Source: Escherichia phage mEp554. From it: a DNA stretch of 53,846 bases. Under the pieces are notes generated by a model. It did no database searches and was not told the DNA's origin. It saw only the letters and a list, made by a program, of their open reading frames with translations. The translations under genes were made by a program, and so were the position numbers. Location: sequence record PP180005; one strand, written 5' to 3'. This document shows, piece by piece, positions 5,312-51,169 of the stretch. How positions within the stretch are numbered: the first letter of the stretch is position 1; each line of letters begins with the position of its first letter.

Positions 5312-5329
5312 TATGTTATTTCCTCCGGT

Positions 5330-6448
5330 TTACAAAATGGAAAATTCAGGGTAATAAACAAAGCGCCCGATCTCACCATGATCCGGGCTGTAAATTATTA
5401 CCGCCGCCAGGCGACGCGACCGCCAGCCGCCATTAGTTGAATAGGCATCTTTACCAGCTAACGTGCCGTGATACTCAACAACGCCCAACGATGATTCAAT
5501 CATCCGTTGATGATGCCAGTGCCCGCAGTGGGCGTAAACCGCCGCAGACTTGCCGAAATCCTCGCGCCAGTCAGCTACGCAAGCAGCCAATAAGTTTTCC
5601 GGCTTTTTGATAGTGTGCCCGTGGTGGTAAGCAAGGAATGTTTTCCCGTACTGCGTGTGGTGGACGATAGTAGGTGACACATCAACCGTCACGCGCGGTT
5701 CATCTTCGTAAAAAGCCGCCAGCGCCGCACGTAGCCAAATCATACCAGACTGGTCATGATTCCCTGATAACACCTGGATTTCCACATCCTTATGATTTAG
5801 CAACATCTTTCCTACAGCCCGCCGGACAGACCGGATCGCCACATAAACAAGTTTTGCGTAGCGCGAATCGCAATCAAGAACGTGATTGCTTGATGGCGTC
5901 ACTGGTAACAATCCGTCAGTGTGAAGCAGGTCGCCCCCGAGAAGAAGAACCGCTTTTTCACTCATAGGGGCAGCGCCAACTGCGTAGTCAAAGAAGTCAT
6001 TTAACACGCGTTCAGCGATCCCAGTGTCGTAGCTCTCGCCGCATTCAGCTTTATGAGCAAGCGCCCCGATGTGCAGGTCAAACACCGGATAAAGTGCCAG
6101 GCTTTTTTGAAAATCAATTTCAGGCACTGGCACGGCCTCCGCGCGTGGTATTTCTTCCGTGAATGCGTCGCGGGCCGCTTCCATTAACTGTTCCATTTCG
6201 TCGCGGTCACGGGCTGTTTTAATCCAGCGCATGATCACATTGCCATCCTTATCGACTAGCAACGACTCGCCATTAACACCAAAACCAGGAGCGCGGCGCG
6301 TTGATAATAAACCGCGTTTTGCCAGTTTTGCTCCCAGGCGTTCGACATTGCGTTTAGACATGCCGTACTTTTCAGCGATCTGTTTGTACGTTAATCCGTT
6401 GTTATATTCAGCGATCAATTGCTCATCACTGATTTTTCTTTGCGACAT
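5330..6448 (-). CDS. HTH domain protein fused to calcineurin-like metallophosphoesterase
   Basis: Phosphoesterase motifs DLH, GDLLHTDG, GNHD, HHGH, GHWHH; N-terminal LTYKQIAEKYGMSKRNVERL HTH; start at SD-preceded MSQRK. Confidence 0.75.
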   Translation of the reverse strand: MSQRKISDEQLIAEYNNGLTYKQIAEKYGMSKRNVERLGAKLAKRGLLSTRRAPGFGVNGESLLVDKDGNVIMRWIKTARDRDEMEQLMEAARDAFTEEIPRAEAVPVPEIDFQKSLALYPVFDLHIGALAHKAECGESYDTGIAERVLNDFFDYAVGAAPMSEKAVLLLGGDLLHTDGLLPVTPSSNHVLDCDSRYAKLVYVAIRSVRRAVGKMLLNHKDVEIQVLSGNHDQSGMIWLRAALAAFYEDEPRVTVDVSPTIVHHTQYGKTFLAYHHGHTIKKPENLLAACVADWREDFGKSAAVYAHCGHWHHQRMIESSLGVVEYHGTLAGKDAYSTNGGWRSRRLAAVIIYSPDHGEIGRFVYYPEFSIL

Positions 6449-6481
6449 AATGTTAATCCCTCCAGTTAACAAAATGTATAC

Positions 6482-7225
6482 CTATTTGCACGCAAAAAGT
6501 TCAGACACCCAAAGTTGACCCTTAGCAGTAAATAGTGATTGTACATAACCAGCATCCGAACATTTTACCACTCCATAGCCTTTGTCTAAAAACCACTGTT
6601 TGAACATGCGCCCGCCGCGCCTAATTCGCGTATCGTACACGTCAACCTGTTCAAGTTTTTTGTTGAGTTGCGTAGCAGTCATACCCAAAGGCTTGGCAAC
6701 CTGTGTAGCGTTGCGATACTGTTTGTTTCTCACAATCGCATCACAGACAGCCGCTTTTGGCGCTAATTCCTTGTTTTCCAGCTCCAGCCGTTCAGCTTCT
6801 TTCTGTGCTAATAGTTTTTGTTCCACCTCATCAGCCCATGCGCGAGCCGCAGCAACCGGGTCAGTGAAATCCGGCAAAGCTGGTTTAAAACCGTAATGTC
6901 CATTTTCACGCAAAGCAGGGAGAACATCCTCGCACACCCAATCCTGGAAGCGCTCAGCCGATTCTATTTTTGATCGCATCACAAGGCGGTAAACATCTGA
7001 TTCATGGATTAGCGTTACGCCTTGCGGGATTGGAGCGAATCCCAAATGTTCCATTTCAGAACATTTTATTTTTATCAATGACTTACAGTGATCTTTGATA
7101 GCTTTTTGTGGCGTAGCGTAACCAAGCGCCCGCGCCACATCCATTGCAACAAAAGCAGGTTTACCATCATAAATTACAGCAGTGATTTTATTGTCATCAA
7201 AATTAAAGCACATCAACTCAGACAT
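6482..7225 (-). CDS. Antirepressor-like protein (Bro-N N-terminal, KilA-C-like C-terminal domain)
   Basis: N-terminal FNFDDNKITAVIYDGKPAFVAMDVARALGY (Bro-N-like); C-terminal QVAKPLGMTATQLNKKLEQ (KilA-C-like); GGAG SD. Confidence 0.65.
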   Translation of the reverse strand: MSELMCFNFDDNKITAVIYDGKPAFVAMDVARALGYATPQKAIKDHCKSLIKIKCSEMEHLGFAPIPQGVTLIHESDVYRLVMRSKIESAERFQDWVCEDVLPALRENGHYGFKPALPDFTDPVAAARAWADEVEQKLLAQKEAERLELENKELAPKAAVCDAIVRNKQYRNATQVAKPLGMTATQLNKKLEQVDVYDTRIRRGGRMFKQWFLDKGYGVVKCSDAGYVQSLFTAKGQLWVSELFACK

Positions 7226-7357
7226 TGTAATTTCTCCGTAAAACGCGCTACAACGCAAAAATCCCACCGCGTAACCCGATTGCACAGGTTGCAGTGTTTT
7301 ATTGCGTCAGAGGCGCTTTCAGATGGCTAATTTTTGATTTACAGACTGATATGAATG

Positions 7358-7459
7358 TTATGGATTGACTAGAAGGAACAAACCGCCGAACAAAGCGACG
7401 TTAACAGCGATTGCAGCAGCGATGGCAAAAGCCAGGGCGAAAACGTGTTTACCGTCCAT
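7358..7459 (-). CDS. Single-helix hydrophobic mini-protein (33 aa)
   Basis: MDGKHVFALAFAIAAAIAVNVALFGGLFLLVNP; GAGAGGA SD. Confidence 0.35.
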   Translation of the reverse strand: MDGKHVFALAFAIAAAIAVNVALFGGLFLLVNP

Positions 7460-7593
7460 TTTCAAAATCCTCTCTAAAACGCTCTATAACGAGCTAAATA
7501 GCTAAAGGTATGCAAGTGTAGCACCAAATGCTTTTTAGCTCGCTGGTGAGCTTGTTTGGTTGGTTATTTTTGATTTTTGCGGATCGTGGTTGG

Positions 7594-8580
7594 TCAAAGA
7601 GCGCCTGCGCGTGTATCACGTAGCGTTTTTGGTTTAAGCAGGAAATCAAGTGTCGCAGTGAAGCCATCGCCGAAGTAAAAATCTGAAGCATTGTTTTTGA
7701 ACGTTTCAAAGTAGGCGACAAAGCCGTTAATGCTTTTGTCTTTCAGGTAGTCAGTGAACGCGTAGATCTTGCGTTCAAGATCCCGATCCAGTTCGGCAGG
7801 TGGCAACAGGCCATCAAACGTGCTGTTAAATGCCTCCACTACGTCTGCAGCGTTTGCAGTGGCTGACAGGTTGCGCCATTTTTCAGCATCAGCCAGATAC
7901 CCATCAAATTTAGTTACCCGGCAAATGTTAATAGGCTTAGGTGTTCCGCCACGACTACGCCATTGCGTTAAAGCCCACTCAATCACTAATGTGATCTCAT
8001 CCTCTGTGTACGCTTTACGTGTTTTTGTTTCTGTCAGTAGTTCTATGAATGGCTTTGCATCACGACATTTGCATCCTGCCTTGTCGTTATAGAAGGCCAG
8101 GCAACGCAATGCCGCTTCGTTTACTCCATCCTGATTGACCTGTTTTTCTTCTGGGGGGATACAAGGGGGTATATCTTTAATGTTCTCTTTACTGGTTATA
8201 TATGACTGATTAGGGTGTCTCTCTGACACTACCCCCGGTGTCACTGTGACACTACCCCGGTGTCTCTCTGACACTACCCCCGGTGTCTCTCTGACACTAC
8301 CCAGCAATGATGGTAGGACTATCACATAGAAGTTACTCGTTTGCTCCTTTCCTCCGATTAAGTATCTTGGTTGTTTAATCAATAGACCTTTCTCACAAAG
8401 GGCGTCGACGGCCCTCATTGCCGTACTCTTACTGATCTCGCATTCCTTTGCTATGTGATGATAAGAAGGGTAACACTCGCCGTTATCATTAGCGTTATCA
8501 GCTAACTTCAACAGCACTAGTTTGTGCATTGGGTTGCCGACCTCAGTATGGAAGACTTCTACCATTAGCCGCATACTCAT
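7594..8580 (-). CDS. Replication initiation protein (N-terminal winged-helix domain; iterons inside gene)
   Basis: N-terminal HKLVLLKLADNANDNGECYPSYHHIAKECEIS; four 22-23 bp iterons within coding sequence; sits upstream of helicase; start uncertain (8529-8595). Confidence 0.7.
   Translation of the reverse strand: MSMRLMVEVFHTEVGNPMHKLVLLKLADNANDNGECYPSYHHIAKECEISKSTAMRAVDALCEKGLLIKQPRYLIGGKEQTSNFYVIVLPSLLGSVRETPGVVSERHRGSVTVTPGVVSERHPNQSYITSKENIKDIPPCIPPEEKQVNQDGVNEAALRCLAFYNDKAGCKCRDAKPFIELLTETKTRKAYTEDEITLVIEWALTQWRSRGGTPKPINICRVTKFDGYLADAEKWRNLSATANAADVVEAFNSTFDGLLPPAELDRDLERKIYAFTDYLKDKSINGFVAYFETFKNNASDFYFGDGFTATLDFLLKPKTLRDTRAGAL
8214..8303. repeat. Origin iterons: four tandem 22-23 bp repeats GGTGTCTCTCTGACACTACCCCC, each with internal GTGTC/GACAC inverted repeat; AT-rich stretch at 8171-8213
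   Basis: Directly visible tandem repeats in rep gene, encoding SVRETPGVVSERH repeats; lambda O/ori-like arrangement. Confidence 0.7.
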
Positions 8581-8601
8581 AAGCATTAACCTCATGACGG
8601 A

Positions 8602-8847
8602 CTAAAACATTAACTGATAAACACAGAAGAAACCTGGCAGCTGGCTGATTAGGCCGCTTCTTTTCAGTTGATGCAGTGCAGAGATAGTATCGCGTAACGA
8701 AATTTCGCACATTTCCGCGATCTCTTCCGGCGTTACTTCGCTTTTGCCGTTGCATCCGGCCTTTGTTGCCAGTGCAATTAAGATGAGTTTTTGCACATGA
8801 TCATTGTTATTCAGGCGAATATCAAAAGCCTTGCGAACGTAATACAT
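8602..8847 (-). CDS. Small winged-helix DNA-binding protein, paralog of the replication initiator N-terminal domain; first gene of leftward operon (Cro position)
   Basis: VQKLILIALATKAGCNGKSEVTPEEIAEMCEIS aligns with rep N-terminus; GGAG SD before MYYVRK. Confidence 0.5.
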   Translation of the reverse strand: MYYVRKAFDIRLNNNDHVQKLILIALATKAGCNGKSEVTPEEIAEMCEISLRDTISALHQLKRSGLISQLPGFFCVYQLMF

Positions 8848-9112
8848 GTTTCTTTCTCCTATGGTTAGAGTGAACGCGCTGGCGGGTATCAAATTAGCAT
8901 TAGATAGCAGTGACTGACCGCTGAACAGATCCCGCCGTTGCGTGATATTTGTTTTTCGCTTCGCAGCGACACCGGATTTTTAAAGAGCTTTTAAGGTATG
9001 TGCCTTTTGTGCTTTCCCTTATCTTTTTCCTTGCATCATTGCAAGTTCGGCTTTACCTTGTCTGTAAGTTTACAGAATGGCGTTAACAGATCAAGGATTG
9101 AAAATTACATTT

Positions 9113-9128
9113 TGTGACTTGCATCAAA
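9113..9128. promoter_or_regulatory. Palindrome TGTGACTTGCATCAAA in the divergent immunity intergenic region; candidate operator or CRP-like site
   Basis: Near-match to TGTGA-N6-TCACA; adjacent CATTTTGT motif; second TTGCATCATTGCAA palindrome at 9032-9045. Confidence 0.25.
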
Positions 9129-9153
9129 TTTTTTTAGGTTATAGGGTAGCGAC

Positions 9154-9801
9154 ATGAAAACAAAATGGTATGACTTAGCAAAACAACTCATGCGGGCGCA
9201 GGGTATGAGTCAGGATTCATTGGCAGATCTCATGGGGATCACAAAAGGCGGCTTGTCACACTGGCTTAACGGTCGCCGCGAGCCAAATCTTGAAGACATT
9301 GCGCGGATCATGCGGGCGCTTGGGCGTCGGCAGTTCACTGTCACACATGATGGAATGGTCATTGATGATTCTGTTTCTAACACGTTGCCGGGAGCGCCTC
9401 CTCGTGATTTAGGCAGTTACCCGGTTGTTGACTGGAAGGATGTAGCAAACAATATGGAAGACATAAGCAGATCAACATTGCCACACGTTACGACTAGCGT
9501 TATTTGTTCAGATGATAGTTACTGGCTGGTTGCTAAAGGCGAATCAATGAACGCGCCGCAAGGATTGAGTATACCAGCGGGGACGATGATACTTGTCGAT
9601 CCGCACGCGCCAGCTATTGACGGAAAACTGGTTATAGCCCAACTGGAGGAGGGGCAGATACCGACGTTTAAACAGTTGATTATTGATGGAGGCAGAAAAC
9701 TTTTGCGTTCACTGAATCCGTTGTATCCGCCGATCCCTATGAATCCAGAATCTAAAATCATAGGCGTGGTAGTGGATGCGAAGATCGTAAACCTGCCATA
9801 A
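9154..9801 (+). CDS. CI-like repressor, HTH_XRE plus LexA-like S24 peptidase domain
   Basis: N-terminal GMSQDSLADLMGITKGGLSHWLNGRR HTH; C-terminal GESMNAP (Ser) and TFKQL (Lys) S24 motifs; divergent from leftward operon. Confidence 0.85.
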   Translation: MKTKWYDLAKQLMRAQGMSQDSLADLMGITKGGLSHWLNGRREPNLEDIARIMRALGRRQFTVTHDGMVIDDSVSNTLPGAPPRDLGSYPVVDWKDVANNMEDISRSTLPHVTTSVICSDDSYWLVAKGESMNAPQGLSIPAGTMILVDPHAPAIDGKLVIAQLEEGQIPTFKQLIIDGGRKLLRSLNPLYPPIPMNPESKIIGVVVDAKIVNLP

Positions 9802-9808
9802 AACATTA

Positions 9809-9832
9809 GCCGCCTGGTGGCGGCTTTTCTTT
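9809..9832 (+). terminator. Rho-independent terminator after repressor gene
   Basis: GCCGCC-TGGT-GGCGGC hairpin followed by TTTTCTTT. Confidence 0.65.
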
Positions 9833-9925
9833 GCCATAAAAACACCAAAACGTAAACAGAAAACGTTATTTATTATTTAAATATCAATGACATATAAAAT
9901 ATTTTAAAAAAGTATACAAAATGGA

Positions 9926-9954
9926 TTGACTAGGTGTTTTACGGGGCGTATATT
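9926..9954 (+). promoter_or_regulatory. Sigma70-like promoter for rightward early operon
   Basis: TTGACT, 17-nt spacer, TATATT; TATACAAAATGG motif immediately upstream. Confidence 0.5.
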
Positions 9955-10088
9955 GCGAGTCAAAGGAGGAAGCAAGGCAGGGAAAGAAGGTTACTTGCTC
10001 TTTAACAATCTGGTCAGCCGCTGGAAGTGCGGCAATTAACGAAGATGATTTTTATTAAGTATCATCAAGGATATAAGGAGATCAGATC

Positions 10089-10379
10089 ATGACAGTTACA
10101 ATCATGTATGGCAAATGTGATAGCAAAATAAACGCCAGGGAACGCAGAAGAATAAAAAGAGAAAACGAAAGAAAATCATCACCTGCAATTAATAAAACGG
10201 ACAATGTGGATAAAGCCATTCGCTTTGCAAACGATGAAAGATGCAAACCCAATGGCATTAAAGAACGTCGCAAAGGAGCAGTAAAATGGTATACGGAAAA
10301 TGAAAGCGGCAACTACTACCACGCAACGCAACCACGCCAACTAGGGGAGAAACCACTGGATAAAGTCCGTTACCATTAA
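10089..10379 (+). CDS. Hypothetical basic protein
   Basis: AGGAG SD; lysine/arginine-rich. Confidence 0.55.
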   Translation: MTVTIMYGKCDSKINARERRRIKRENERKSSPAINKTDNVDKAIRFANDERCKPNGIKERRKGAVKWYTENESGNYYHATQPRQLGEKPLDKVRYH

Positions 10380-10409
10380 TACATATCGTAAACAATCGGA
10401 GGTGACGTT

Positions 10410-10532
10410 ATGGTTATTAAGGCGCTTCAATTCAAACTTGCGGTAGCGGAAATGCTTCACGATGCCGAAATGTGGAGCGCCGCAAATAAAGCCTTGTACA
10501 TAGTGTTAACAGCTAAGGAGATCAAAGAGTGA
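10410..10532 (+). CDS. Hypothetical small protein (40 aa)
   Basis: GGAGGTGA SD; stop overlaps erf start. Confidence 0.35.
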   Translation: MVIKALQFKLAVAEMLHDAEMWSAANKALYIVLTAKEIKE

Positions 10533-11170
10533 AAACAGAATTACACAAAAAGCTGTGGACGATTCAACAAACGCTGAACGCACCGAAAAATCAGCGCAAT
10601 AATTTCGGTGGGTACAATTACAGGTCGGCGGAGGATATTTTGGAGGCGGTTAAGCCACTTCTTCAAAATATAACGCTGACTGTTAGCGATGAAATCGTCC
10701 TGATCGGCAATCGCTATTATGTGAAAGCCACTGCAACACTAAGCGACGGAGAAGATGAAATTGCGGTAACTGCTTACGCCAGGGAAGAAGAAAGCAAGAA
10801 GGGAATGGACGCAAGCCAGTTAACTGGCGCGACATCAAGTTATGCGCGTAAATACGCGTTGAACGGCTTGTTCTGCATTGATGACGCAAAAGATCCTGAT
10901 ACTGATGCTTACGCGAAACAGACAAATCAACAGCCGCGACAGCAGAAAAACACGCCGAAACAACAACCACAGCAGCAGAAAGCGCCGCCAAATCCTGATG
11001 AAGTATTAGCACGTTTCTGTGATGCGGCAGCGAAAGCGCCGGACGCTAACAAGTTGCGCGAGATATTCGGGAAGTGCTGGAAGATACTTCCTAAAGATTC
11101 AGAGCAGCAACAGAAAGCTAAAGACGTTTATGATATTCGCTTAAAAGAGCTTAACGGGGAGATCGGTTAA
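10529..11170 (+). CDS. erf: Erf-family single-strand annealing protein
   Basis: GGYNYRSAEDILEAVKPLL motif typical of ERF family; GTG start with AGGAG SD. Confidence 0.8.
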   Translation: MKTELHKKLWTIQQTLNAPKNQRNNFGGYNYRSAEDILEAVKPLLQNITLTVSDEIVLIGNRYYVKATATLSDGEDEIAVTAYAREEESKKGMDASQLTGATSSYARKYALNGLFCIDDAKDPDTDAYAKQTNQQPRQQKNTPKQQPQQQKAPPNPDEVLARFCDAAAKAPDANKLREIFGKCWKILPKDSEQQQKAKDVYDIRLKELNGEIG

Positions 11171-11637
11171 TGAGCTTAAATTCAATCACGCTGGGCGGTA
11201 ATATCGGAAATGATATGGAAGTTCGCTACACGCAAAACGGTAAAGCTATTGGTAGCTTTCCGTTAGCTGTAACGAATGGCTACGGTGATAATAAGCGGAC
11301 AATGTGGATCACTTGCCTGGTATTTGGCGAGCGTGCGGAAAAATTAGCTCCACATATTCGTAAGGGTGGAAAAATAGTGGTAAGCGGTCGCCTGGATGTT
11401 CGGCAATATGACCGGAACGACGGCACGAAGGGGACGGCGGTAGAAGTGGCGGTCAATGAATTTGAGTTCATGGCTGTTAACCAGCAAGGCCAACAGCAAG
11501 GCCAGCAGCAGGGCCAGCGCCAGCCGCCGCAACAGAATCAAGGCGGCGGCAATCAACCTCCGATGGATTTTGACGATGATATCCCATTTAGTTGCGTGGG
11601 GTTACAATATGGAAAACATAGAATCTACGCGTTGTAA
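11170..11637 (+). CDS. ssb: Single-stranded DNA-binding protein with 15-aa extension after the acidic tip
   Basis: OB-fold SSB N-terminus; Gln/Gly-rich linker; DFDDDIPF tip at 11566-11589 followed by SCVGLQYGKHRIYAL before stop. Confidence 0.85.
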   Translation: MSLNSITLGGNIGNDMEVRYTQNGKAIGSFPLAVTNGYGDNKRTMWITCLVFGERAEKLAPHIRKGGKIVVSGRLDVRQYDRNDGTKGTAVEVAVNEFEFMAVNQQGQQQGQQQGQRQPPQQNQGGGNQPPMDFDDDIPFSCVGLQYGKHRIYAL

Positions 11638-12401: not shown

Positions 12402-12415
12402 TGAGGTATTAAATC

Positions 12416-14291: not shown

Positions 14292-14307
14292 TGTGATTGC
14301 GATCACA
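14292..14307. promoter_or_regulatory. Perfect CRP-consensus palindrome TGTGATTGCGATCACA
   Basis: TGTGA-N6-TCACA; intergenic; followed by TACAAAATGTATA motif (minus orientation) and a TGTGATCGCGA half-site. Confidence 0.4.
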
Positions 14308-14387
14308 TAGCTATACATTTTGTACTGTGATCGCGAATCCGTTTTGTAAACTGAAAGCAAAAGGTTTACGGTACGGAGGGAAATAAG

Positions 14388-17874: not shown

Positions 17875-17896
17875 AATTTACAAAATGGCGTCATTG

Positions 17897-17912
17897 CGTG
17901 ATGCGGATCACA
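17897..17912. promoter_or_regulatory. CRP-like palindrome CGTGATGCGGATCACA
   Basis: GTGA-N6-TCACA; centred about 60 bp upstream of predicted TSS of promoter CTTGTT-N17-TATACT (17929-17957). Confidence 0.35.
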
Positions 17913-18033
17913 TAATGGCGCTTTTTGTCTTGTTTGCATGTATCCATTTTGTATACTTCAAGCAAACAAAATGCTCTTTAAAAATCCGGCAGCGCTGAAA
18001 TGCGTAGAAATCACCTGAAAAGGAGAGAGCATT

Positions 18034-19234: not shown

Positions 19235-19413
19235 AAAACGAAATTAAAGATCTGCAAATAGATATTCAGCGCGATGAGCATGATTTAGCTACAGTCCGAC
19301 AAATCCAGGCTTTCCACATGAGAGAACTGCTTGCGCTGAAAGAGCTTGAAAGAAAGTTGGTCCAATCAATATCTGATCGTAAACGTCTGGTTGCTCGTTA
19401 CGGGGGCAAATAA
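19231..19413 (+). CDS. Hypothetical protein
   Basis: ORF in operon. Confidence 0.45.
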   Translation: MKNEIKDLQIDIQRDEHDLATVRQIQAFHMRELLALKELERKLVQSISDRKRLVARYGGK

Positions 19414-20135
19414 TGAATCTGGAATCAATTCTTAAATTCCACTTCCCAAAATCACCGCGTTTGTCAGATGAAAGCCGGGGCACGTCCCCGGATGCGCTTA
19501 ATACTACTGATGCACTAACTGCCGCAGGTATGGCGCAATCGCGCGTAGAGCTTGGTTATAGCGCTTTTTTGGGGAAGATGGAACTATCACAAGCCGAAAA
19601 GCATAAGGCCGTAGTTTTGCTTATAGAGCGTTTAAGGGCTATGGCAAAAGACTATGAATACGTTATGGAACTGGACGAGGCCAAACGCAATGATCTCATT
19701 ATTCTTGTTGCCGTTTTCGCATTTCGGGATTATTGCCAGAGTGCCGCGACGGAAAAAACTTGTATGGAGTGCGGCGGATATAAATTTACGTTTGACGAAT
19801 ACGGGGAAAAACACCTTTGTAAAAAATGCAAGGGGCATGGGACAGTTCGCAATCATTGTAAACAATGCAAGGGCCGTGGCGAAGTACCGGATAAAGCAGC
19901 CAGCGAAGCGGCGGAAATGCCAGTGTTCAAAACGTGCCAGCGCTGCGGCGGGCGCGGGTACTCGCGTTTCCCTGTAGATCTTGTCCGGCAGGCGGTTAAT
20001 CAGCTTGTTTTTCCGGTAAGCCGATCAACATGGTGGAAGAAATACCGGGCTTTCTATGAAGACGCCATTGCCGAATTGTTCAAAGAAGAGGCGCGGGCTG
20101 ACAACGAAATTAAACGAGTGACGCGGGGTGAATGA
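19413..20135 (+). CDS. Q-like late antiterminator (phage 82 type) with four CxxCxGxG zinc-finger repeats
   Basis: N-terminal MNLESILKFHF...SRGTSPDAL recalled as Q82-family; CMECGGYK, CKKCKGHG, CKQCKGRG, CQRCGGRG. Confidence 0.6.
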   Translation: MNLESILKFHFPKSPRLSDESRGTSPDALNTTDALTAAGMAQSRVELGYSAFLGKMELSQAEKHKAVVLLIERLRAMAKDYEYVMELDEAKRNDLIILVAVFAFRDYCQSAATEKTCMECGGYKFTFDEYGEKHLCKKCKGHGTVRNHCKQCKGRGEVPDKAASEAAEMPVFKTCQRCGGRGYSRFPVDLVRQAVNQLVFPVSRSTWWKKYRAFYEDAIAELFKEEARADNEIKRVTRGE

Positions 20136-22322: not shown

Positions 22323-22534
22323 TGCAAGTTAAATGCACATGCTCAAGCAATGACAGCGTCTTCACTATTGGGCGTGCTTATGACGTTCATATCGTTTATG
22401 GCAATGCGGTTAGCGACGCTGGAGTTACGCTTGTATTGATTGACAATCATGATAATGTGTGGGGATTTATGCCAAATTACCGGGGCGGTGAGATAACTGG
22501 TGTTCATTTCTCGGCCAGCTTCGAGCGTTATTAA
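22322..22534 (+). CDS. Hypothetical protein
   Basis: AAGGGG SD. Confidence 0.45.
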   Translation: MQVKCTCSSNDSVFTIGRAYDVHIVYGNAVSDAGVTLVLIDNHDNVWGFMPNYRGGEITGVHFSASFERY

Positions 22535-22571
22535 TTGCGTCATAATGTTGATTTTAATGAATAAATAAAAA

Positions 22572-22587
22572 TGTGATCTTTATCACA
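22572..22587. promoter_or_regulatory. Perfect CRP-consensus palindrome TGTGATCTTTATCACA
   Basis: TGTGA-N6-TCACA; centre about 60 bp upstream of predicted TSS of the 22605-22633 promoter. Confidence 0.4.
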
Positions 22588-22604
22588 ATGTATACAAAAT
22601 GGCA

Positions 22605-22633
22605 TTGTTTCGGCAGTGCCGTTTTGTTATATA
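22605..22633 (+). promoter_or_regulatory. Sigma70-like internal promoter
   Basis: TTGTTT, 17-nt spacer, TATATA; TATACAAAATGG motif directly upstream. Confidence 0.4.
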
Positions 22634-29487: not shown

Positions 29488-30858
29488 ATGCCATCCAATT
29501 TAGAATTGGCGGTTAATGCTGCCTTGTCTCAACGCCAGGCGGCCTACGCCCGCTATGCCGCAGCACACCCATTCACTATGGGTATAGATGCCAAACGGGA
29601 TGCAGCGTGGAGTGAATACGGATTCAAAGAAGAAATAACCTATGACGATCTATACAAGCTGTATCGTCGCGGTGGTATCGCTCATGGTGCTGTAGAGAAG
29701 ATTGTTACTACTTGCTGGCGCACTATGCCAACGATGATCGAGGGAACCGAAGACGAGAAAGCCGAAAAGGAAACACCCTGGGAAAGAGAAATCAAGAAAC
29801 AATTCGACAACAGATTTTGGCGCACCATTGCCGAATGTGACCGCCGCCGCCTCATCGGTCGTTATGCTGGCCTGTTGATTCATGTCAGAGATAACCAGCC
29901 GTGGGATAAGCCAGTAACAAAAGGCGTAGGCATTGCCAAATTTACCCCGGTATGGGCTGGTGCTCTGACGCCGAAGGACTTCGAAGAAAACCCGGACAAT
30001 GAAAACTATGGCCTGCCGACGTGGTGGGAGTACAAGGAACGCATTAACAGTAAGACCATAGCAAGAAGGATCCACCCTGACCGCATATTCATCTTCGGTG
30101 ACTATTCTGATGATGCAATAGCCTTCCTTGAGCCGTCATATAACGCCTTTGTCTCGCTTGAGAAGGTGGAAGGGGGTAGCGGTGAATCATTCCTGAAAAA
30201 CGCTGCCCGCCAGTTAGCTATCTCGTTCGACAAGGATATTGACTTCCGGTCACTGGCAGCCACATACGGATGCGACGTCACAGAGCTTCGAGAAAAATTC
30301 AACGAGGCAGCGGATGAAATGAATAAGGGTAACGACGTGATGATGGCATTACAAGGGGCCACAGTTAGCCCGCTGGTGACTGCCGTATCTGACCCGTCAG
30401 CAACCTATGATGTCAACCTGCAAACCGCCGCCGCTGGTATTGATATTCCGACTCGCATCCTGGTTGGGAACCAGCAAGGCGAACGCGCATCAACCGAAGA
30501 TCTCCGCTACTTCAACAGCCGCTGTATGACTCGCAGGGAGGAAATCGGCGGTGAACTTGAGGAACTATTCCGCAAGATGGCAGATCTTCGCCTTATCAGC
30601 ATACCAGTTGACGTATCAGTTATATGGGACGACCTGAACGCCATGACTAAAGCCGAACTACTGGAAGCGGCATACAAAATGGCGCAAATCAATCAGGCTT
30701 GTTTGGCTACTGGTGAAGAAATATTTAGCGGTGACGAGATTCGCGAGGCTGCCGGATACGATGGCCCCGCTAGTGTAGTAGAAACGGAAGAGGGTGACGA
30801 TGATGAAGGTGAAGAAGATAATCAGGCGAATACCTCCAGCCGCGATAATGCCATCTAA
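29488..30858 (+). CDS. Portal protein
   Basis: Size and position after terL; AGGAG SD before MPSNLELAV; acidic C-terminus. Confidence 0.7.
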   Translation: MPSNLELAVNAALSQRQAAYARYAAAHPFTMGIDAKRDAAWSEYGFKEEITYDDLYKLYRRGGIAHGAVEKIVTTCWRTMPTMIEGTEDEKAEKETPWEREIKKQFDNRFWRTIAECDRRRLIGRYAGLLIHVRDNQPWDKPVTKGVGIAKFTPVWAGALTPKDFEENPDNENYGLPTWWEYKERINSKTIARRIHPDRIFIFGDYSDDAIAFLEPSYNAFVSLEKVEGGSGESFLKNAARQLAISFDKDIDFRSLAATYGCDVTELREKFNEAADEMNKGNDVMMALQGATVSPLVTAVSDPSATYDVNLQTAAAGIDIPTRILVGNQQGERASTEDLRYFNSRCMTRREEIGGELEELFRKMADLRLISIPVDVSVIWDDLNAMTKAELLEAAYKMAQINQACLATGEEIFSGDEIREAAGYDGPASVVETEEGDDDEGEEDNQANTSSRDNAI

Positions 30859-38098: not shown

Positions 38099-38176
38099 TT
38101 TCTTATCCTCTTTTGCTTCCTCCGGTTAATCCGGCCTTCTAAATCCCTTTACTCTATCCCTTTCCTTTAGCCTCTT

Positions 38177-38218
38177 TATACAAAATGTATTCGTTGAAGT
38201 GAAGCCATTTTGTATAAA
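38177..38218. promoter_or_regulatory. Divergent promoter pair built on back-to-back TATACAAAATG motifs
   Basis: Plus: TCGTTG-N16-TATAAA (38191-38218); minus: TTCACT-N17-TATAAA; each -10 lies inside the partner motif. Confidence 0.4.
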
Positions 38219-38255
38219 ATAGAGATCAGGATCACACTTTTTACGAGGTTAAATC

Positions 38256-41490: not shown

Positions 41491-41659
41491 ATTGGCCCCC
41501 TTTGTTGGTACTGCTTTCTCTTCTTGCTTTCTGTATACATCTTGTTGCGTCCTGTGTGAAGCCATTTCGTAAACTGGGTATAATTCTTGTGACGAAGTTC
41601 TCATTTTTCGCGTAGAAGCGCGTAAAGATGTATGCAATATGTAACTTATAGGGGGAATC

Positions 41660-43170: not shown

Positions 43171-43216
43171 TTCACACCTCCGCGCCATTTTGTTAATCAT
43201 GCTTCCTTTTGAGTAC

Positions 43217-43245
43217 AATATACATACTGTAAAAAACGCGATCAA
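43217..43245 (-). promoter_or_regulatory. Sigma70-like promoter for minus-strand moron operon
   Basis: Minus strand TTGATC-N17-TATATT. Confidence 0.4.
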
Positions 43246-43264: not shown

Positions 43265-43280
43265 CGTGATGGCGATCACA
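43265..43280. promoter_or_regulatory. CRP-like palindrome CGTGATGGCGATCACA
   Basis: GTGA-N6-TCACA centred about 62 bp upstream of predicted minus-strand TSS; 19 nt upstream of L start. Confidence 0.35.
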
Positions 43281-45210: not shown

Positions 45211-45224
45211 CAGGAGAAAAGGCC

Positions 45225-48200: not shown

Positions 48201-50711
48201 GAGAAAAAGGCTACAGCGGAATCACTGGAAACCATCACAGCAGAAATGAACACGATGGATTCTAATCTTAAGGGTCAGATCTCCAACGTGGAACGCGCAG
48301 TGGCTGACGAATCAAGCGCCCGCGCTGAAGCAATCAACGGCGTTAACGCATCAATAAGCAATCTCGACAAGAAAACCGACGCCAGCGTCAATAGACTTGA
48401 TCAGGCCATCGCAGACGAAACGAACGCCCGCACACAGGCAGTCAGTGACGTTAACGCGAGTGTCTCATCGCTAGACAAGAAAACTGACGCCAGCGTGAAA
48501 CGCCTGGATCAAGCAATAGCAGACGAAACCAGCGCAAGAACTGAAGCCATCAGCGGTGTGAATGCGTCAATTTCCACGCTTGATAGCAAGGTAACAAGCA
48601 ATGTAACGCGCATAGATAAATCTATCGCCGACGAAACGAAGGCCCGCACTGACGCAATCAGCGGGGTCAAAGCAAGTATTGACACACTTGAAGGTAACAC
48701 CAATTCAGAAGTTAAACGCCTTGATCAGTCGATTGCCGACGAGGCCAGCGCCCGCGCCCAGGCTGTGAGCGATGTTAAAGCATCAATAAGCAACCTTGAA
48801 AGCAAAACTGACGCCAGCGTTTCACGTCTCGACAAGGCAATTGCAGACGAAACACAGGCAAGAAGCGCTGCAATAACAGATGTTAAGGCTGATTTGACAA
48901 CGCTTGAAAACAGCACAAACGCCAGCGTTAAACGTTTGGATCAGGCTATTGCAGACGAATCAAGCGCCCGCGCTGAAGCAATCTCAGGCATTAACGCGGA
49001 GATCGGCAGCATTGAAAATAGCGTTGACAAAAACAGCGATGATATAAATCAGACAAAAGCAAGCCTGCAAAACGCATCTATTGCTCTGATTAACAACTCA
49101 ATCGCTCAAACCAACACGCGTGTTACGCTTACGGCCCAATACAAGAAAGGACGCAAAGAAACCAACGCGCAAATTGACCGTATTGACAATGTTATCGCAG
49201 AAGAGAAAAAGGCTACAGCCGAATCAATTGGCGTGGTAAAAGCATCGATCACGGATCTTGATAAGAAAACCGATGCCAGCGTTTCGCGTCTCGATAAAGC
49301 AATTGCAGACGAAACCAACGCACGCAGCCAGGCGGTGAGCGACGTTAACGCAAGCATTTCAGCGCTCGACAAGAAAACCGATGCCAGCGTTAAGCGTCTG
49401 GATCAAGCTATTGCAAATGAAACCAGCGCACGCAGCGAGGCAATCAGCGGCGTGAATGCAAGCATTAACACCCTTGAAAGCAACACCGAATCCGAAGTTA
49501 GCAGACTGGACCAGGCAATTGCTGACGAGGCCAGCGCCAGAGCGCAAGCCATCAGTGGTGTGAATGCGTCAATTTCAACCCTTGATGGCAAGGTTACAAG
49601 CAACGTGACCCGCATCGACAAAGCCATTGCAGACGAAACGAAGGCACGCACAGACGCAATCAGTAGCCTCAATTCATCGCTTACCAGTACGATTAACTCG
49701 AAGGTGTCTGAGGTATCAACGGCGCTTTCTACACATGAAGCATCAAGCGCGGAAAAATTCGGCCAGATCTCAGCGTCTTTCGAATCTGTAAACTCAAGTA
49801 TTACAGAATGGTCGCAGGCTATGGCAACGGCTGACGAGGCATTGTCAACCAAAATTGATCAGTTAACAGTAACCGTTAACGGTAACAAAACGGCGATCGA
49901 GACGACATCGAACGCGCTAACCGATTTCAAGGGTAACGTTGATGCGTCGTATTCCATCAAGCTGGCAACCGATAACAACGGCATGAAGTACGCTACAGGT
50001 ATGTCGCTTGGCCTGACTGGTAACGGTACAAACTTTCAATCGCAGTGTATTTTCCTTGTTGACCGCTTCGTGTTAATGACAGCAGCAAACGGCACATATA
50101 CAACGCCTTTCTATATGTCTAATGGTGCAATGTATGTGAAAGAAGCGTTTATTAAAAACGCATCAATAGGAGAAGCCAAAATTGCAAACGCTGCAATCAC
50201 ATCAGCCAAAATCGCACAGCAAATACAGTCAACAGAATTTGTTAAAAACTCAAAAGGCTGGATGATTAACAAAGATGGGTGGGCTGAGTTCAATAGCGTT
50301 ACGGTGAGGGGTACTGTGTATGCTACGGACGGTAAGTTCGCCGGTTCACTTGAGGCGAAAACCTTTATCGGTGATGTTGCAAATATGTATACAGGAGGTG
50401 ACGTTAGCAGGTTAAATGATGGCGTACTGGAAAAAACAATTACATACAACGATACATCTAACGCAGCGTACAGACGACACATCTGCGTTATGGCAAACGT
50501 TAAAGGTTTTGGTGGCTGTACAATAACTATCGGAAGTTCAGAAAAATCCCTTTCTATGAGTGGAGACGAACGCCTTGTCATGCATTCAGCGGCAATAACT
50601 ACCAGTGGCGTTACAGTTAAAATTAAGGTATCCGCTCAAAATGGTAGGGGTGCATATATAAATTCGCCGACCGTCATTGTGTCGCGCGGTTCTGGTTCAT
50701 TCTCAGGATAA
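45225..50711 (+). CDS. Host specificity protein J-like tail tip / central fibre (1828 aa) with internal repeat expansion
   Basis: Lambda J-like N-terminal 800 aa; long coiled-coil repeat stalk; AGGAG SD. Confidence 0.9.
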   Translation: MSSGGGKAKTPTLLNDNLYHKQFYRVLDILSEGPIYGPVNQKAPLNSVMLNDTPITDANGNTSVPGVSVAWRNGTADQSPINGFNAIESTVIVNAKVTHDTPIIRTVSDPNVNRVRLNLGVDSLVQSDDKGNQYNTSVTLMVDVKPSSSTTWSLVKDIHIGPGKQSGEYLEAHIIKAPDEKPFDIRVRRVTPDSTGDLLHNDTRWSSYSEIIDDNLSYPHTAVAGAVIDHDQYTDTPTRTYHMRGLIVDVPDNYDPETRTYSGLWLGGFKKAYTNNPAWLFRYLVKNERFGLARHAGYIDVDDGALYTLSQYCDQLVNDGYGGLEPRMTLNAYITEQMSARDLLDNIAGMFRGIALWDGQRLTVMIDAPQDPIATITNANVVDGAFTRSSIARAESYNAVIVSWTDPENGWEQSKEYVADDELIARDGYNETTLEAFGCTSRGQAYRAGKWLIETAKREPSKFTFKMARDAIHFTPGDIIEILDNNRAGARLGGRIVANNGKVITVDKVDSDLVAAGDTISLLDSDGKFKKHQITGVNGNNITLASAPAWIRNGTVFAVSTESAKPVLCRITSVAETENNSVYTIEAAQHDPHKQAVVDEGAIFEVNNDTLNHFRVPNIENLKVLNVGSETVQCRATWETQTTTHRLTFEIRVYNTEGRIVATYETTNYRYDFYGLDAGSYTIGIRGRNDTGMKGAESIVDLVIGAPAAPIGVNWVPGVFQATVYPISKTTLTTDTAYDFYYSGENQITDPSKVTTLAQFTGRGYQWTFGGMNTGHTYYVYVRTRNAFGVSDFVEVSGKPTENFDEISDYVMKDVMESEQFKDMIGDIKDLGDRADLIESATNDLKNATDNLKTATDNLTNITDDLRVETDNLTNITDELRTDTDGLITETGAIKADTDTLKKETEDLYKKVEENADDIGQHEARIDSLEVSSEKVGSELAQAKASLQNASLALINNSLAQTNTRVTLTAQYKKGRTETKAEIDRIDNVIAEEKKATAESLETITAEMNTMDSNLKGQISNVERAVADESSARAEAINGVNASISNLDKKTDASVNRLDQAIADETNARTQAVSDVNASVSSLDKKTDASVKRLDQAIADETSARTEAISGVNASISTLDSKVTSNVTRIDKSIADETKARTDAISGVKASIDTLEGNTNSEVKRLDQSIADEASARAQAVSDVKASISNLESKTDASVSRLDKAIADETQARSAAITDVKADLTTLENSTNASVKRLDQAIADESSARAEAISGINAEIGSIENSVDKNSDDINQTKASLQNASIALINNSIAQTNTRVTLTAQYKKGRKETNAQIDRIDNVIAEEKKATAESIGVVKASITDLDKKTDASVSRLDKAIADETNARSQAVSDVNASISALDKKTDASVKRLDQAIANETSARSEAISGVNASINTLESNTESEVSRLDQAIADEASARAQAISGVNASISTLDGKVTSNVTRIDKAIADETKARTDAISSLNSSLTSTINSKVSEVSTALSTHEASSAEKFGQISASFESVNSSITEWSQAMATADEALSTKIDQLTVTVNGNKTAIETTSNALTDFKGNVDASYSIKLATDNNGMKYATGMSLGLTGNGTNFQSQCIFLVDRFVLMTAANGTYTTPFYMSNGAMYVKEAFIKNASIGEAKIANAAITSAKIAQQIQSTEFVKNSKGWMINKDGWAEFNSVTVRGTVYATDGKFAGSLEAKTFIGDVANMYTGGDVSRLNDGVLEKTITYNDTSNAAYRRHICVMANVKGFGGCTITIGSSEKSLSMSGDERLVMHSAAITTSGVTVKIKVSAQNGRGAYINSPTVIVSRGSGSFSG
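47750..49690 (+). repeat. Tandem repeats inside J: short TDNL-type repeats, then about twelve 96-bp units (DKKTDASVxRLDQAIADETxAR...) arranged as a duplicated block of about 1 kb
   Basis: Directly visible periodic DNA and protein repeats; linker QNAS(L/I)ALINNS(L/I)AQTNTRVTLTAQYKKGR occurs twice. Confidence 0.8.
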
Positions 50712-50719
50712 AAAAACAA

Positions 50720-50744
50720 CCCCGCTTCGCGCGGGGTTTTCTTT
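50720..50744. terminator. Bidirectional rho-independent terminator, copy 2 of duplicated module
   Basis: CCCCGC-TTCGC-GCGGGG hairpin plus T-run; follows J and the convergent lipoprotein gene. Confidence 0.65.
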
Positions 50745-50992
50745 TAGTAGTTGGCTACACAGTTCGACGGGCTACCGATGCGGCGCATATTGTGATCGAG
50801 TTCATGACACCATTGCCCAGTATACGGCAGTTTTTCAGTGTCATAGACAAGATGACCACTACCATCATAAACAATATCATGTGGAATTACTCCGCTATTT
50901 GGCAGGTTGTGCAATGCGGCCTCTTTGTCAACAGCACAGCCAGTAAGAGCAACAGCCGCAGCGAACAAAACCACTTTGAACACGTTTTTCAT
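50744..50992 (-). CDS. Small lipoprotein (82 aa), opposite-strand moron between J and side tail fibre
   Basis: MKNVFKVVLFAAAVALTGC lipoprotein signal with LTGC lipobox. Confidence 0.6.
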   Translation of the reverse strand: MKNVFKVVLFAAAVALTGCAVDKEAALHNLPNSGVIPHDIVYDGSGHLVYDTEKLPYTGQWCHELDHNMRRIGSPSNCVANY

Positions 50993-51169
50993 TTTTGAAT
51001 CCTCATTCTTGTTGGTTCATCCGGTTTATCCGGTGGCTTAAATATCCGACAAAACCACATTTCGTATATTGATATAAATCAACAAATACATTTTGTGTAA
51101 GCAGAAAATGCAACAAAGATCACAAAATGGTAGAATTATTCCGTTAATTAACATAATGGAGTCATTGCA

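Follow-up and report, generated by a model that had tools for sequence, protein, structure and literature searches.

Candidate operators of a lambda-CI-like repressor at promoter regions throughout the genome of Escherichia phage mEp554

Escherichia phage mEp554 (PP180005) is a complete mEpimmI-type temperate coliphage of the mEp021 family, and its genome carries a recurring motif, ACAAAATGG, along most of its length. All 53,846 nucleotides of the record were analysed, and we refer to this stretch as the window. The motif is probably the core of 17-bp operators recognized by Rep, the phage's lambda-CI-like repressor, which appear from the sequence to have been copied at about ten promoter regions. 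The recurrence of the motif itself is real, whereas its dispersal is the unusual part; this kind of site is already known from lambda-type phages.

The string ACAAAATG was found 20 times in the window, compared to 4.6 ± 2.1 times in dinucleotide-preserving shuffles, none of which reached 20 (0 of 100; maximum 11). An initial annotation of this DNA had proposed a comparison with shuffled sequence, and the enrichment is borne out, although the two to three copies it gave as the chance expectation was too low. The longer ACAAAATGG is present in 11 copies against 0.71 expected, and TACAWWWTGK in 15 against 2.6. All 17 positions cited earlier carry exact ACAAAATG on the strand given; three copies, at 9160, 20470 and 23682, had been overlooked, all in coding or start-codon context, and with those at 30674 and 34538 they constitute coding or start-codon background. 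By a rough tiling of open reading frames, in which about 89% of the window is coding and about 11% non-coding, 12 of the 20 copies lie in non-coding DNA. Once obviously spurious reading frames are corrected, about 15-16 are located in intergenic or leader DNA, consistent with the previous estimate of at least 15.

The motif is specific to the phage's own family. Its density is 0.44-0.48 per kb in approximately 45 related phage contigs, and its median is 0 per kb in 36 lambda-like control contigs. Among 12-36 distinct relatives, motif columns are 97.2% identical versus 86.5% for flanking columns, and the degenerate partners at 14335-14351, 22615-22631, 9068-9084 and 41558-41574 are exact copies in many relatives. 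A literature search with the motif string matched only primers. A search for TACAAAATG-N16-18-CCRTTTTGT across 185,579 species genomes returned, among the matches listed, only scattered AT-rich chance matches in unrelated taxa.

Most likely, ACAAAATG(G/T) is the centre of a 17-mer with the consensus GT(A/T)TAC-AAAAT-G(G/T)ATWC, in which positions 6 (C) and 12 (G) never vary and the flanking T.TAC and G(G/T) also carry information. A matrix of this 17-mer, trained on the same sites that it then scores, finds 20 sites of at least 14 bits in the window versus 0.7 in shuffles, spread over 5.3-51.2 kb. Dyad symmetry outside the core C...G is weak: symmetric matches number 55 of 126 versus 32 ± 5 at random, but the way the core is defined accounts for 21 of these. 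TACAWWWTGTA palindromes make up five sites; the majority, of TGG form, are asymmetric. The pure palindrome ACAWWWTGT (6 versus 3.5) is not enriched beyond its A4 forms. The dominance of the TGG asymmetry is odd for a dimer site.

Rep is the only HTH_3 protein in the window, and its similarity to lambda CI (3bdn) extends over residues 15-208 (E=1e-18). Rep021 confers immunity (PMC11893012). The window search turned up neither another HTH_3 protein nor a Cro-like one; the gene divergent from rep encodes a replication-initiator-like winged helix and not a Cro. We considered gp14 (8602-8892) as a Cro analogue or Crp-like binder and rejected it; its Pfam Crp-HTH match is sub-threshold, and PHROGs groups it with replication-initiator N-termini. 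The immunity region contains the following features, start sites here and throughout being placed from hexamers.

9154..9801, plus strand: rep, CI-type immunity repressor and proposed binder of the motif (Pfam HTH_3 4e-13, Peptidase_S24 1.3e-18)
9068..9084, plus strand: Operator A, GTTTAC AGAAT GGCGTT, over the -10/spacer of the putative leftward P_L, centre about -17
9103..9119, minus strand: Operator B, AGTCAC AAAAT GTAATT, centre about -41 of a putative leaderless P_RM and about -50 of P_L
9912..9928, plus strand: P_R upstream operator, GTATAC AAAAT GGATTG, over the TTG of the -35 TTGACT, centre about -41; 22.1 bits
9937..9953, plus strand: P_R proximal operator-like 17-mer, TTTTAC GGGGC GTATAT, over the -10 TATATT; the weakest call among these parts

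The copies in this region lie over -10/-35 elements, whose hexamers are predictions except at P_R, the only strong match and the only promoter to pass a simple sigma-70 consensus scan. For P_L we read the hexamers as the reverse complements TTGATC (9089-9094) and TAAACT (9067-9072). The centre of Operator A is AAAAT in most relatives. In 30 of 33 distinct relatives the P_R upstream operator is unchanged, against a variable spacer. The proximal 17-mer, 25 bp away, keeps its hexamer positions (xxxxAC ... GTATAT) in relatives as its centre varies; this centre is G-rich, and its lack of an A-tract is an observation against the operator reading. A possible antisense promoter directed leftward, with the inverted P_R copy serving as -10, was set aside, having no conserved -35 and no target gene. 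An Rfam scan of the window matched no RNA family and therefore offers nothing in favour of an element acting as RNA or of an antisense sRNA at 9.8-9.9 kb.

Outside the immunity region, candidate sites and one associated element were placed as follows.

5328..5344, plus strand: junction copy GTTTAC AAAAT GGAAAA separating two leftward genes and, on the mRNA strand, lying directly 5' of the helicase Shine-Dalgarno; exact 8-mer in 94% of relatives
6465..6481, plus strand: junction copy GTTAAC AAAAT GTATAC inside a leftward operon
10377..10393, plus strand: degenerate junction copy TAATAC ATATC GTAAAC after an N-like gene, TAATACAAAATGTAAAC in most relatives; on the minus strand, in the matrix scan, GTTTAC GATAT GTATTA at 13.1 bits
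14311..14327, minus strand: upstream operator (about -42) of a putative promoter before gene 14388
14335..14351, minus strand: proximal operator GTTTAC AAAAC GGATTC, centred at about -17 and joined to the -10 TAAACT; 21.4 bits; partner 24 bp away
17876..17892, plus strand: distal copy ATTTAC AAAAT GGCGTC, upstream of the nutR2 promoter
17906..17922, plus strand: weak copy GATCAC ATAAT GGCGCT, overlapping the right arm of a CRP-like palindrome; 13.3 bits
17940..17956, minus strand: GTATAC AAAAT GGATAC, the copy with the best dyad, joined to the -10 TATACT of the promoter directly 5' of nutR2; 22.2 bits; boxA TGCTCTTTAAAAA downstream at 17971-17983
17962..17978, plus strand: copy GCAAAC AAAAT GCTCTT at about +5 to +7, overlapping the nutR2 boxA; exact 8-mer in only 53% of relatives
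22572..22587, no strand: CRP-consensus palindrome TGTGATCTTTATCACA, an associated element and not the motif, about 60 bp upstream of the putative start site
22590..22606, plus strand: upstream operator (about -42) of a candidate late promoter; 22.4 bits
22615..22631, minus strand: proximal operator TATAAC AAAAC GGCACT, centred at about -17 and joined to the -10 TATATA; partner 25 bp away; CCATTTTGT in many relatives
38176..38192, plus strand: operator TTATAC AAAAT GTATTC where a minus-strand moron and the tape-measure gene diverge; 16 of 17 positions identical to O_L1 of phage Midgardsormr38
38201..38217, minus strand: partner operator TTATAC AAAAT GGCTTC, 25 bp from the previous one; exact 8-mer in 100% of 31 relatives
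41558..41574, minus strand: operator GTTTAC GAAAT GGCTTC, directly followed by a perfect TATAAT ahead of tail gene 41660; 19.8 bits; centre AAAAT in many relatives
41630..41646, plus strand: degenerate copy in a leader, GTATGC AATAT GTAACT, reading GTATACAAAATGTAA in some relatives
43181..43197, minus strand: copy in the leader of the first minus-strand gene of the 42.4-43.2 kb cluster, 5' of its Shine-Dalgarno
43218..43234, minus strand: weak copy TTTTAC AGTAT GTATAT at the -10 of a putative minus-strand promoter; 12.8 bits
43274..43290, plus strand: copy fused to the CRP-like palindrome CGTGATGGCGATCACA
51084..51100, minus strand: operator TTACAC AAAAT GTATTT between a lipoprotein gene (minus) and gene 51170 (plus); 19.4 bits
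51118..51134, plus strand: copy GATCAC AAAAT GGTAGA, whose TGG gives the TG of an extended -10 (TGGTAGAAT) of gene 51170; exact 8-mer in 100% of 28 relatives

The copies tend to occur in tandem, either 24-25 bp apart (14311/14335, 22590/22615, 38176/38201 and 9912/9937) or 34-35 bp apart (9068/9103, 17906/17940 and 51084/51118). The back-to-back pairs described previously are real (38180/38206, 51089/51122 and 17945/17966), including those that face each other between divergent genes. Both orientations are used, in leftward as well as rightward units, and predicted positions relative to start sites are about -81, -70, -58, -50, -42/-41, -25, -17 and +5 to +7; some copies lie at gene junctions, immediately 5' of Shine-Dalgarno sequences. 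At most window promoters one copy would lie over the -10/spacer, a repressing position. Such varied placement in promoters, leaders and junctions is what a repressor site would show, unlike an RNA-polymerase element. Copies are also present near genes that the lysogen is expected to express, such as the lipoprotein exclusion gene, an observation that speaks against the operator reading.

Homologous repressors (36-46% identity) were identified in three heteroimmune phage groups, with recognition helices similar to that of Rep (TKGGLSHWLNG vs SKGAVGHWMTG). In each group three 17-bp repeats of the form nnATAC-AnnnT-GTnnnn lie between cI and cro; the operators of these relatives are predicted or annotated sites.

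Sister contigs, cI-cro repeats: GTATAC ATAAA GTAGAT, GTATAC ATTTT GTCTGT and GTATAC ATAAC GTATAA
Erwinia phage Midgardsormr38, cI-cro repeats: GTATAC ATTTC GTATCT, ATATAC AAAAT GTGTCT and GAATAC AGATT GTATGA
Midgardsormr38, O_L: ATATAC AAAAT GTATTC, CAATAC GTTTT GTATAC and ATATAC GTTAT GGATTG
Stx1-converting phage AP005153, repeats: AAATAC AATAT GTACTT, AAATAC ACATT GTGCAT and CAGTAC AGAGC GTAATA, annotated 'putative operator' in its GenBank record

Window sites A and B align colinearly with O1 and O2 (GTATACATTTTGTCTGT) of the sister phage (alignment A1 for Operator A), at equal distance from the repressor start codon. The sister contigs have an extra pair, spaced by 23 bp, 2.3 kb downstream. 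Operator spacings in relatives are 23-28 and 32-33 bp versus 24-25 and 34-35 bp in the window, the predicted Midgardsormr38 P_L layout (-17/-43/-71) matches the window cassettes (centres about -17 and about -42), and in the heteroimmune relatives, too, one copy overlaps the -10/spacer.

Together, these observations suggest a model in which Rep, with an N-terminal Cro/CI-type helix-turn-helix and a C-terminal self-cleaving S24 dimerization domain, would recognize the 17-mer. One tandem copy would cover the -10/spacer (about -17) and the other the upstream edge of the -35 (about -42), as in lambda, so that cooperatively bound Rep dimers would exclude RNA polymerase. The copy upstream of the -35 would thus be the second member of a tandem operator pair and not a stand-alone UP element. 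Unlike in lambda, operator sets would extend beyond the immunity region to promoters at 14.3 kb and in front of nutR2, to the 22.6 kb candidate late promoter and to those at 38.2, 41.6, 43.2 and 51.1 kb, which are divergent or belong to morons, and single junction copies within early operons could be roadblocks. In the lysogen, Rep alone would directly silence nearly every transcription unit, possibly stimulating its own promoter from about -41, and SOS-induced self-cleavage of Rep would free all of these units at once.

Several familiar patterns were considered as the source of the motif. A 434-like ACAA-N6/7-TTGT operator was rejected because its TTGT part is merely the -35 hexamer. Around P_L and P_R, ACTYGCA was considered as another possible operator half-site; it is not enriched (12 versus 17 expected globally). 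IHF, DnaA-box, LexA-box, TyrR, NarL and GadE patterns, compared by eye, each fit at most a couple of copies.

A different sequence-specific protein, such as an early phage activator, a Cro-like factor or a host nucleoid protein such as Fis, might instead tune weak promoters from about -42, which we consider unlikely. A centre at about -41/-42 is classical for class II activators, and lambda CI activates P_RM from there. Most motif-bearing promoters also have poor -35 hexamers and fail the consensus scan, the core loosely fits the Fis pattern G..YA.....TR..C, and the site is asymmetric, unlike that of a simple dimer. However, half of the strong copies lie over the -10/spacer or in leaders and junctions, which makes no sense for an activator, and the window search yielded Rep as the sole HTH_3 or Cro-like candidate. 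The motif is absent from other enteric lambda-like phages, and this family specificity argues against a general host factor. Its homology in sequence and position with the relatives' cI-cro operators favours the repressor.

The initial annotation had interpreted the motif as a proximal UP element or activator site; a promoter-associated, protein-binding regulatory motif remains appropriate, but the specific assignment is not the best fit for copies predicted at about -81 to +7 in both orientations. The hexamers on which it drew are present (TTGACT at 9926, TTGTTT at 22605 and TCGTTG at 38191), and the motif adjoins the -35 hexamers at 9926 and 22605. In an explanation without a dedicated protein, the forward copy would be a proximal UP subsite bound by the alpha C-terminal domain (alpha-CTD) and the inverted copy a T-rich extended -10 (TTTTG-TATAMT), their likeness due to chance or promoter duplication; we regard this as improbable. 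The proximal UP subsite is AAAAAARNR at -46 to -38, with which the A-tract at about -43 to -40 coincides, and the inverted copy puts TG at or beside an extended -10, followed by TATACT, TATAAA or TAAACT. There is also a resemblance to lac-type promoters with a class I CRP site: at three promoters a CRP-consensus site at about -61 is separated from the -35 by the A-tract at about -42, and CRP at such sites would use an alpha-CTD site at about -43. CRP-consensus palindromes are enriched in the window (8 versus 1.7 expected), with equivalents of the 22.6 kb site at 14292-14307 and 17897-17912, and in relatives their arms are conserved and their centres variable. Yet most copies are not explained by the UP-element reading: of about 25, about 5 lie within about -38 to -59, the others being at about -81, -70, -25, -17 and +5 or at gene junctions. 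Unlike in UP elements and lac-type promoters, the motif has conserved non-A/T flanks (TAC ... TGG/TGT), identical at both positions; the TATAC part is conserved in upstream copies with no need for a -10, as is the CCATTTTG part in proximal copies where sigma-70 needs nothing. The same 17-mers are the triple repeats between cI and cro in relatives, and a bound repressor would compete with the alpha C-terminal domain rather than serve it.

It is very improbable that the copies are conserved linkers at module boundaries, kept for promoting recombination between mosaic genomes and devoid of a regulatory role: although homology of relatives upstream of the 22.6 kb promoter starts exactly at the promoter cassette, and a junction cassette TACAAAATGTAAAC-GGAGG precedes non-homologous genes in relatives, 8-17 bp is too short for homologous recombination, the fixed geometry to the -10/-35 and the tandem spacing would be left unexplained, and functional regulatory cassettes would be expected at mosaic joints just as much. 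Ahead of the relatives' cargo genes, the search for new operator-pair cassettes found essentially only variants of those at 22.6 and 38.2 kb.

If Rep binds as proposed, the closest parallels of the sites are the lambda-type O_L/O_R operators of CI/Cro, 17-bp tandem sites over -10 and -35, and in particular those predicted for the clade of repressors that start MK(T/M)KWY(D/E)LA (AP005153 and Midgardsormr38). These share the HTH_3 and S24 repressor fold and domain pair and the 17-bp hexamer-5-hexamer site (..TAC-A...T-G(T/G)..). The sets are tandem, at 23-35 bp, one site covering the -10 and another the -35 edge. Copies also lie between the repressor gene and the early promoter that diverges from it, and the repressor's own promoter, of leaderless type, has a site at about -41. 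In mEp554, by contrast, the sets recur at about ten regulatory regions over 46 kb; Midgardsormr38 sites are confined to O_L and O_R (3 versus 1.3 expected genome-wide, compared to 15 versus 2.4 in mEp554). mEp554 also differs in having no Cro homologue opposite rep, in a rep gene directed towards P_R and in the loss of the third operator beside P_RM, and operators on a late promoter fall outside the lambda paradigm, which counts against the operator reading.

Dispersed operators are known from repressors that are not homologous to the lambda-CI-like Rep. C1 of phage P1 has 22 operators with an asymmetric consensus (PMC8546580), and mEp554 resembles it in having one immunity repressor and many dispersed candidate 17-bp operators that would control many separate transcription units. 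However, C1 has no relation to lambda CI, nor does its consensus (ATTGCTCTAATAAATTT) to the mEp554 17-mer, and mEp554 differs in its SOS-cleavable CI-type repressor and in sites that are mostly tandem pairs. In cluster A mycobacteriophages, gp71 of L5 has more than 20 stoperators in promoters and in short intergenic gaps within operons (PMC9283540), and the junction copies at 5328, 6465 and 10377 resemble them in placement. L5 sites are 13-mers bound by a monomer, with an orientation that strictly follows transcription, whereas the orientation in mEp554 is mixed. As in these dispersed systems, about 20 or more scattered sites, some in short operon gaps, were found in mEp554.

The mEpimmI phages, described in 2025, are a prevalent, family-level group of human-gut coliphages in which the repressor gives immunity and the operators were left undefined (PMC11893012). 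The 48 known members form one immunity group; lambdoid phages in the same collection form 19. This analysis provides a testable candidate operator, GT(A/T)TAC-AAAAT-G(G/T)ATWC, with about 25 candidate sites mapped, and a first, predicted promoter map (P_L, P_RM, P_R, the nutR2 promoter, a candidate late promoter and moron promoters). Should Rep bind only the copies in the immunity region, these would constitute an ordinary operator plus unexplained look-alikes. More tentatively, an SOS-cleavable CI-type repressor may have turned into a genome-wide regulator, with operator pairs on essentially every promoter (early left and right, nutR2, late P_R'-like and tail-region accessory), several joined by host CRP sites and one by an FNR site. 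If Rep does bind the dispersed sites, a CI-type switch would be wired like that of P1 or L5, with late and accessory genes directly repressed, and the adjoining CRP- and FNR-consensus sites suggest that prophage expression may be coupled to gut carbon and oxygen status. A change of specificity would then need about ten loci to co-evolve, which suggests a mechanistic reason for the single immunity type of the mEpimmI family.

The window holds the whole genome of a temperate coliphage that belongs to the mEpimmI group (mEp021 family). Its tail region is 91-93% identical to those of mEp044, mEp010 and mEp021, its gene order, starting with the integrase gene (186-1400), matches that of the annotated mEp021 genome, and related prophages (86-91% identity) are present in about 35 complete E. 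coli genomes. The 2025 description of mEpimmI reported that Rep021 confers immunity, that three nut sites are targets of the lambda-N-like protein Gp17 and that a single immunity type is common to all 48 mEpimmI genomes, and left operators and promoters undefined (PMC11893012).

The initial annotation described a recurrent motif concentrated in intergenic DNA, and all of its coordinates hold the core ACAAAATG on the strand given. This motif is real and conserved. The window contains 20 copies, versus 4.6 ± 2.1 in dinucleotide-preserving shuffles; ACAAAATGG occurs 11 times (0.7 expected) and TACAWWWTGK 15 times (2.4-2.6 expected). About 15 of the 20 core copies fall in non-coding DNA, which makes up roughly 11% of the window, and the other five (9160, 20470, 23682, 30674, 34538) lie in coding or start-codon context, a number close to chance expectation. 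About 45 related viral contigs carry the motif at 0.44-0.48 copies per kb; for 36 lambda-like contigs recovered by means of the same tail protein, the median is 0. When 12-36 distinct orthologous sequences were aligned for each region, identity to the window was 97.2% in motif columns and 86.5% in the columns around them. Many relatives have exact copies at several positions where the window sequence is degenerate (9068-9084, 10377-10393, 22615-22631, 41558-41574, 41630-41646). At P_R, the rightward promoter, the AAAAAAGTATACAAAATGGATTGACT block is essentially invariant in relatives and the -35/-10 spacer varies freely.

Alignment of 21 copies yielded the 17-mer GT(A/T)TAC-AAAAT-G(G/T)(A/C)(A/T)T(C/T). 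At thresholds of 14 and 12 bits, a matrix scan returned 20 and 30 sites, compared with 0.7 and 2.8 in shuffled sequence, but because the matrix was trained on the very sites that it then scored, these counts describe the site set and do not validate it. The sites cluster in about ten regions, including 9.07-9.12, 9.91-9.95, 14.31-14.35, 17.88-17.98, 22.59-22.63, 38.18-38.22, 41.56-41.65, 43.18-43.29 and 51.08-51.16 kb, and at gene junctions at 5.33, 6.47 and 10.38 kb. Tandem sets within regions are spaced 24-25 bp or 34-35 bp, start to start. The typical proximal copy overlaps the -10/spacer, centred near -17 of the inferred promoter (for example, CCATTTTG-TATACT at 17945), and a second typically abuts the -35, centred near -42. 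This pairing is seen at the 14.3, 22.6 and 38.2 kb promoters, at the last in both directions, and at P_R only if TTTTAC-GGGGC-GTATAT (9937-9953) is counted.

Elements accompanying the motif copies
8602-8892, minus strand: first gene of the leftward early operon, encoding a 96-aa winged-helix protein where cro would be expected
8971-8988 (reverse complement), 9996-10009, 17971-17983: boxA-like elements (GCTCTTTAA...) followed by short hairpins, matching the published nutL, nutR1 and nutR2 positions
5304-5344, 6440-6481, 10377-10415: junction cassettes, (stop)-TACAAAATGTAAAC-n2-3-GGAGG-n7-ATG, also in relatives L012, L038, L039 and L043
14292-14307, 17897-17912, 22572-22587: CRP-like palindromes
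9113-9128, 38221-38236, 43265-43280, 51109-51124: CRP-like half-sites
51070-51083: perfect FNR-type box TTGATATAAATCAA, between a lipoprotein gene (50744-50992, minus) and the gene at 51170 (plus)

The immunity repressor Rep (9154-9801) combines a Cro/CI-type helix-turn-helix with an S24 domain, and it matches full-length lambda CI; the search of the window yielded neither a second HTH_3 protein nor a Cro paralogue of Rep. The 8602-8892 product, encoded divergently from rep, was rejected as Cro, and is instead similar to the DNA-binding domain at the N-terminus of phage replication initiators (PHROG 4617, 1.9e-9). The rep gene appears to be leaderless, like lambda cI transcribed from P_RM: at 9140-9156 a -10-like TATAGG ends 8 nt before the ATG, with no Shine-Dalgarno sequence, and sister contigs L047-L049 have the same arrangement (TATAAT, 7 nt, ATG). 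A motif copy also lies in rep codons 2-6 (9156-9172; AAA ACA AAA TGG, KTKW), near +12 of the inferred P_RM; KTKW is kept as protein sequence in heteroimmune relatives (MKTKWYDL), and this copy is probably coincidental to coding, not an operator.

The most telling evidence comes from heteroimmune relatives, which carry comparable repeats. In sister contigs, whose repressor is 36% identical to Rep with a similar recognition helix, the cro-cI gap contains GTATAC-ATAAA-GTAGAT, GTATAC-ATTTT-GTCTGT and GTATAC-ATAAC-GTATAA (spacings 33 and 27 bp), and a second promoter region, 2.3 kb downstream, holds an extra pair with 23-bp spacing. Erwinia phage Midgardsormr38 (homologous repressor, 46% identity) has GTATAC-ATTTC-GTATCT, ATATAC-AAAAT-GTGTCT and GAATAC-AGATT-GTATGA in the cro-cI gap and ATATAC-AAAAT-GTATTC, CAATAC-GTTTT-GTATAC and ATATAC-GTTAT-GGATTG at O_L, the first O_L site matching window site 38176-38192 at 16 of 17 positions. 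The Stx1-converting phage AP005153 (homologous repressor, 38%) has AAATAC-AATAT-GTACTT, AAATAC-ACATT-GTGCAT and CAGTAC-AGAGC-GTAATA, annotated in that record as putative operators. In a MAFFT alignment of regions 5' of the repressor start, sites A (9068-9084, plus) and B (9103-9119, minus) are colinear with sister O1 and O2, and operators at the inferred Midgardsormr38 P_L, read from sequence as centred near -17, -43 and -71, share the geometry of the window's promoter cassettes. Because these repeats, the colinearity and the P_L geometry agree, the motif is most likely the mEpimmI version of this CI clade's operator. Weak points of this reading are the G-rich centre of the proximal P_R 17-mer (9937-9953), the weak dyad symmetry beyond the core and motif copies near genes expected to be on in lysogens.

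Among the promoters considered, P_R alone passes a simple sigma-70 consensus scan, so we infer the other start sites. Predicted transcription starts fall near 9061 (minus), 9152, 9961, 14360, 17964, 22640, 38170 (minus), 38225, 41595 and 51143. Three operator-bearing promoters lie immediately 5' of boxA/boxB elements, fitting the published nutL, nutR1 and nutR2; each boxA-like element is 10-90 nt 3' of its promoter, and all three N-modified transcription units would thus be directly Rep-controlled. Between P_L and nutL, the inferred P_L leader contains a perfect 16-bp palindrome, CTTGCATCATTGCAAG (9030-9045). The 22.6 kb promoter is a candidate late promoter because the layout downstream of it, a 41-codon ORF and a hairpin right before the lysis genes, resembles lambda P_R'-t_R'. 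Its -35/-10 spacer holds an 11-bp palindrome, CGGCAGTGCCG (22611-22621), invariant in most relatives and possibly a binding element for the Q-like antiterminator (19413-20135).

Inside early operons, Shine-Dalgarno sequences follow the junction copies at 5328, 6465 and 10377 within a few bases. The TACAAAATGTAAAC-GGAGG cassette, its A-tract sometimes flipped to a T-tract, also precedes non-homologous genes in relatives, as well as genes missing from the window. Such copies could be roadblocks or passengers of module exchange.

TGTGA-N6-TCACA palindromes (E. coli CRP consensus, at most one mismatch) number 8 in the window, versus 1.7 expected, and the 22-mer AAATGTGATCTTTATCACAATG matches 18 of 22 CRP consensus positions by hand count. 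Each CRP-like site occupies the class I position, about 60 bp 5' of an inferred start site; the sites are GATC-rich and in relatives keep their arms around a variable centre. Either host CRP or a phage protein could bind there. At the candidate late promoter, sequence 5' of the CRP-like site (22530-22572; relatives L130-L175) is unrelated between genomes, and homology starts exactly at that site, placing a mosaic joint at the promoter-cassette edge. The FNR-type box suggests oxygen-responsive expression of an accessory gene; the adjacent lipoprotein gene is superinfection-exclusion-like.

We consider it probable that cooperative binding of Rep dimers to tandem 17-mers would block the -10 and -35 of almost all phage promoters, and that RecA-stimulated self-cleavage of Rep would release every unit from repression simultaneously. 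Lambda CI, bound at O_R2, activates P_RM from a position near -41; at the inferred leaderless rep promoter a copy is similarly placed, centred near -41, and so may allow positive autoregulation of rep. The promoter association, regulatory character and adjoining -35 hexamers proposed initially are borne out, and the suggested UP element or activator site is less supported than a repressor operator. Binding by another DNA-binding factor or an activator is unlikely. Somewhat less likely still is an UP element with an extended -10, acting without a dedicated protein, which is contradicted by the variable positions of the copies and their conserved G/C flanks. That the copies are recombination linkers is very improbable.

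The feature is best described as putative CI-type operators dispersed genome-wide. Midgardsormr38 sites, in contrast, are confined to O_L and O_R (TACAWWWTGK, 3 versus 1.3 expected genome-wide; 15 versus 2.4 in the window). Functionally, the nearest parallels are P1 C1, with 22 dispersed asymmetric 17-bp operators (PMC8546580), and mycobacteriophage L5, whose operators and stoperators number more than 20 (PMC9283540), although the repressors of both are unrelated to lambda CI, and site orientation is mixed in the window, unlike in L5. These results supply a putative operator, previously missing, for mEpimmI, a newly described and prevalent gut phage family, together with a first predicted promoter map, and the dispersed-operator reading offers a testable explanation of its single immunity group.
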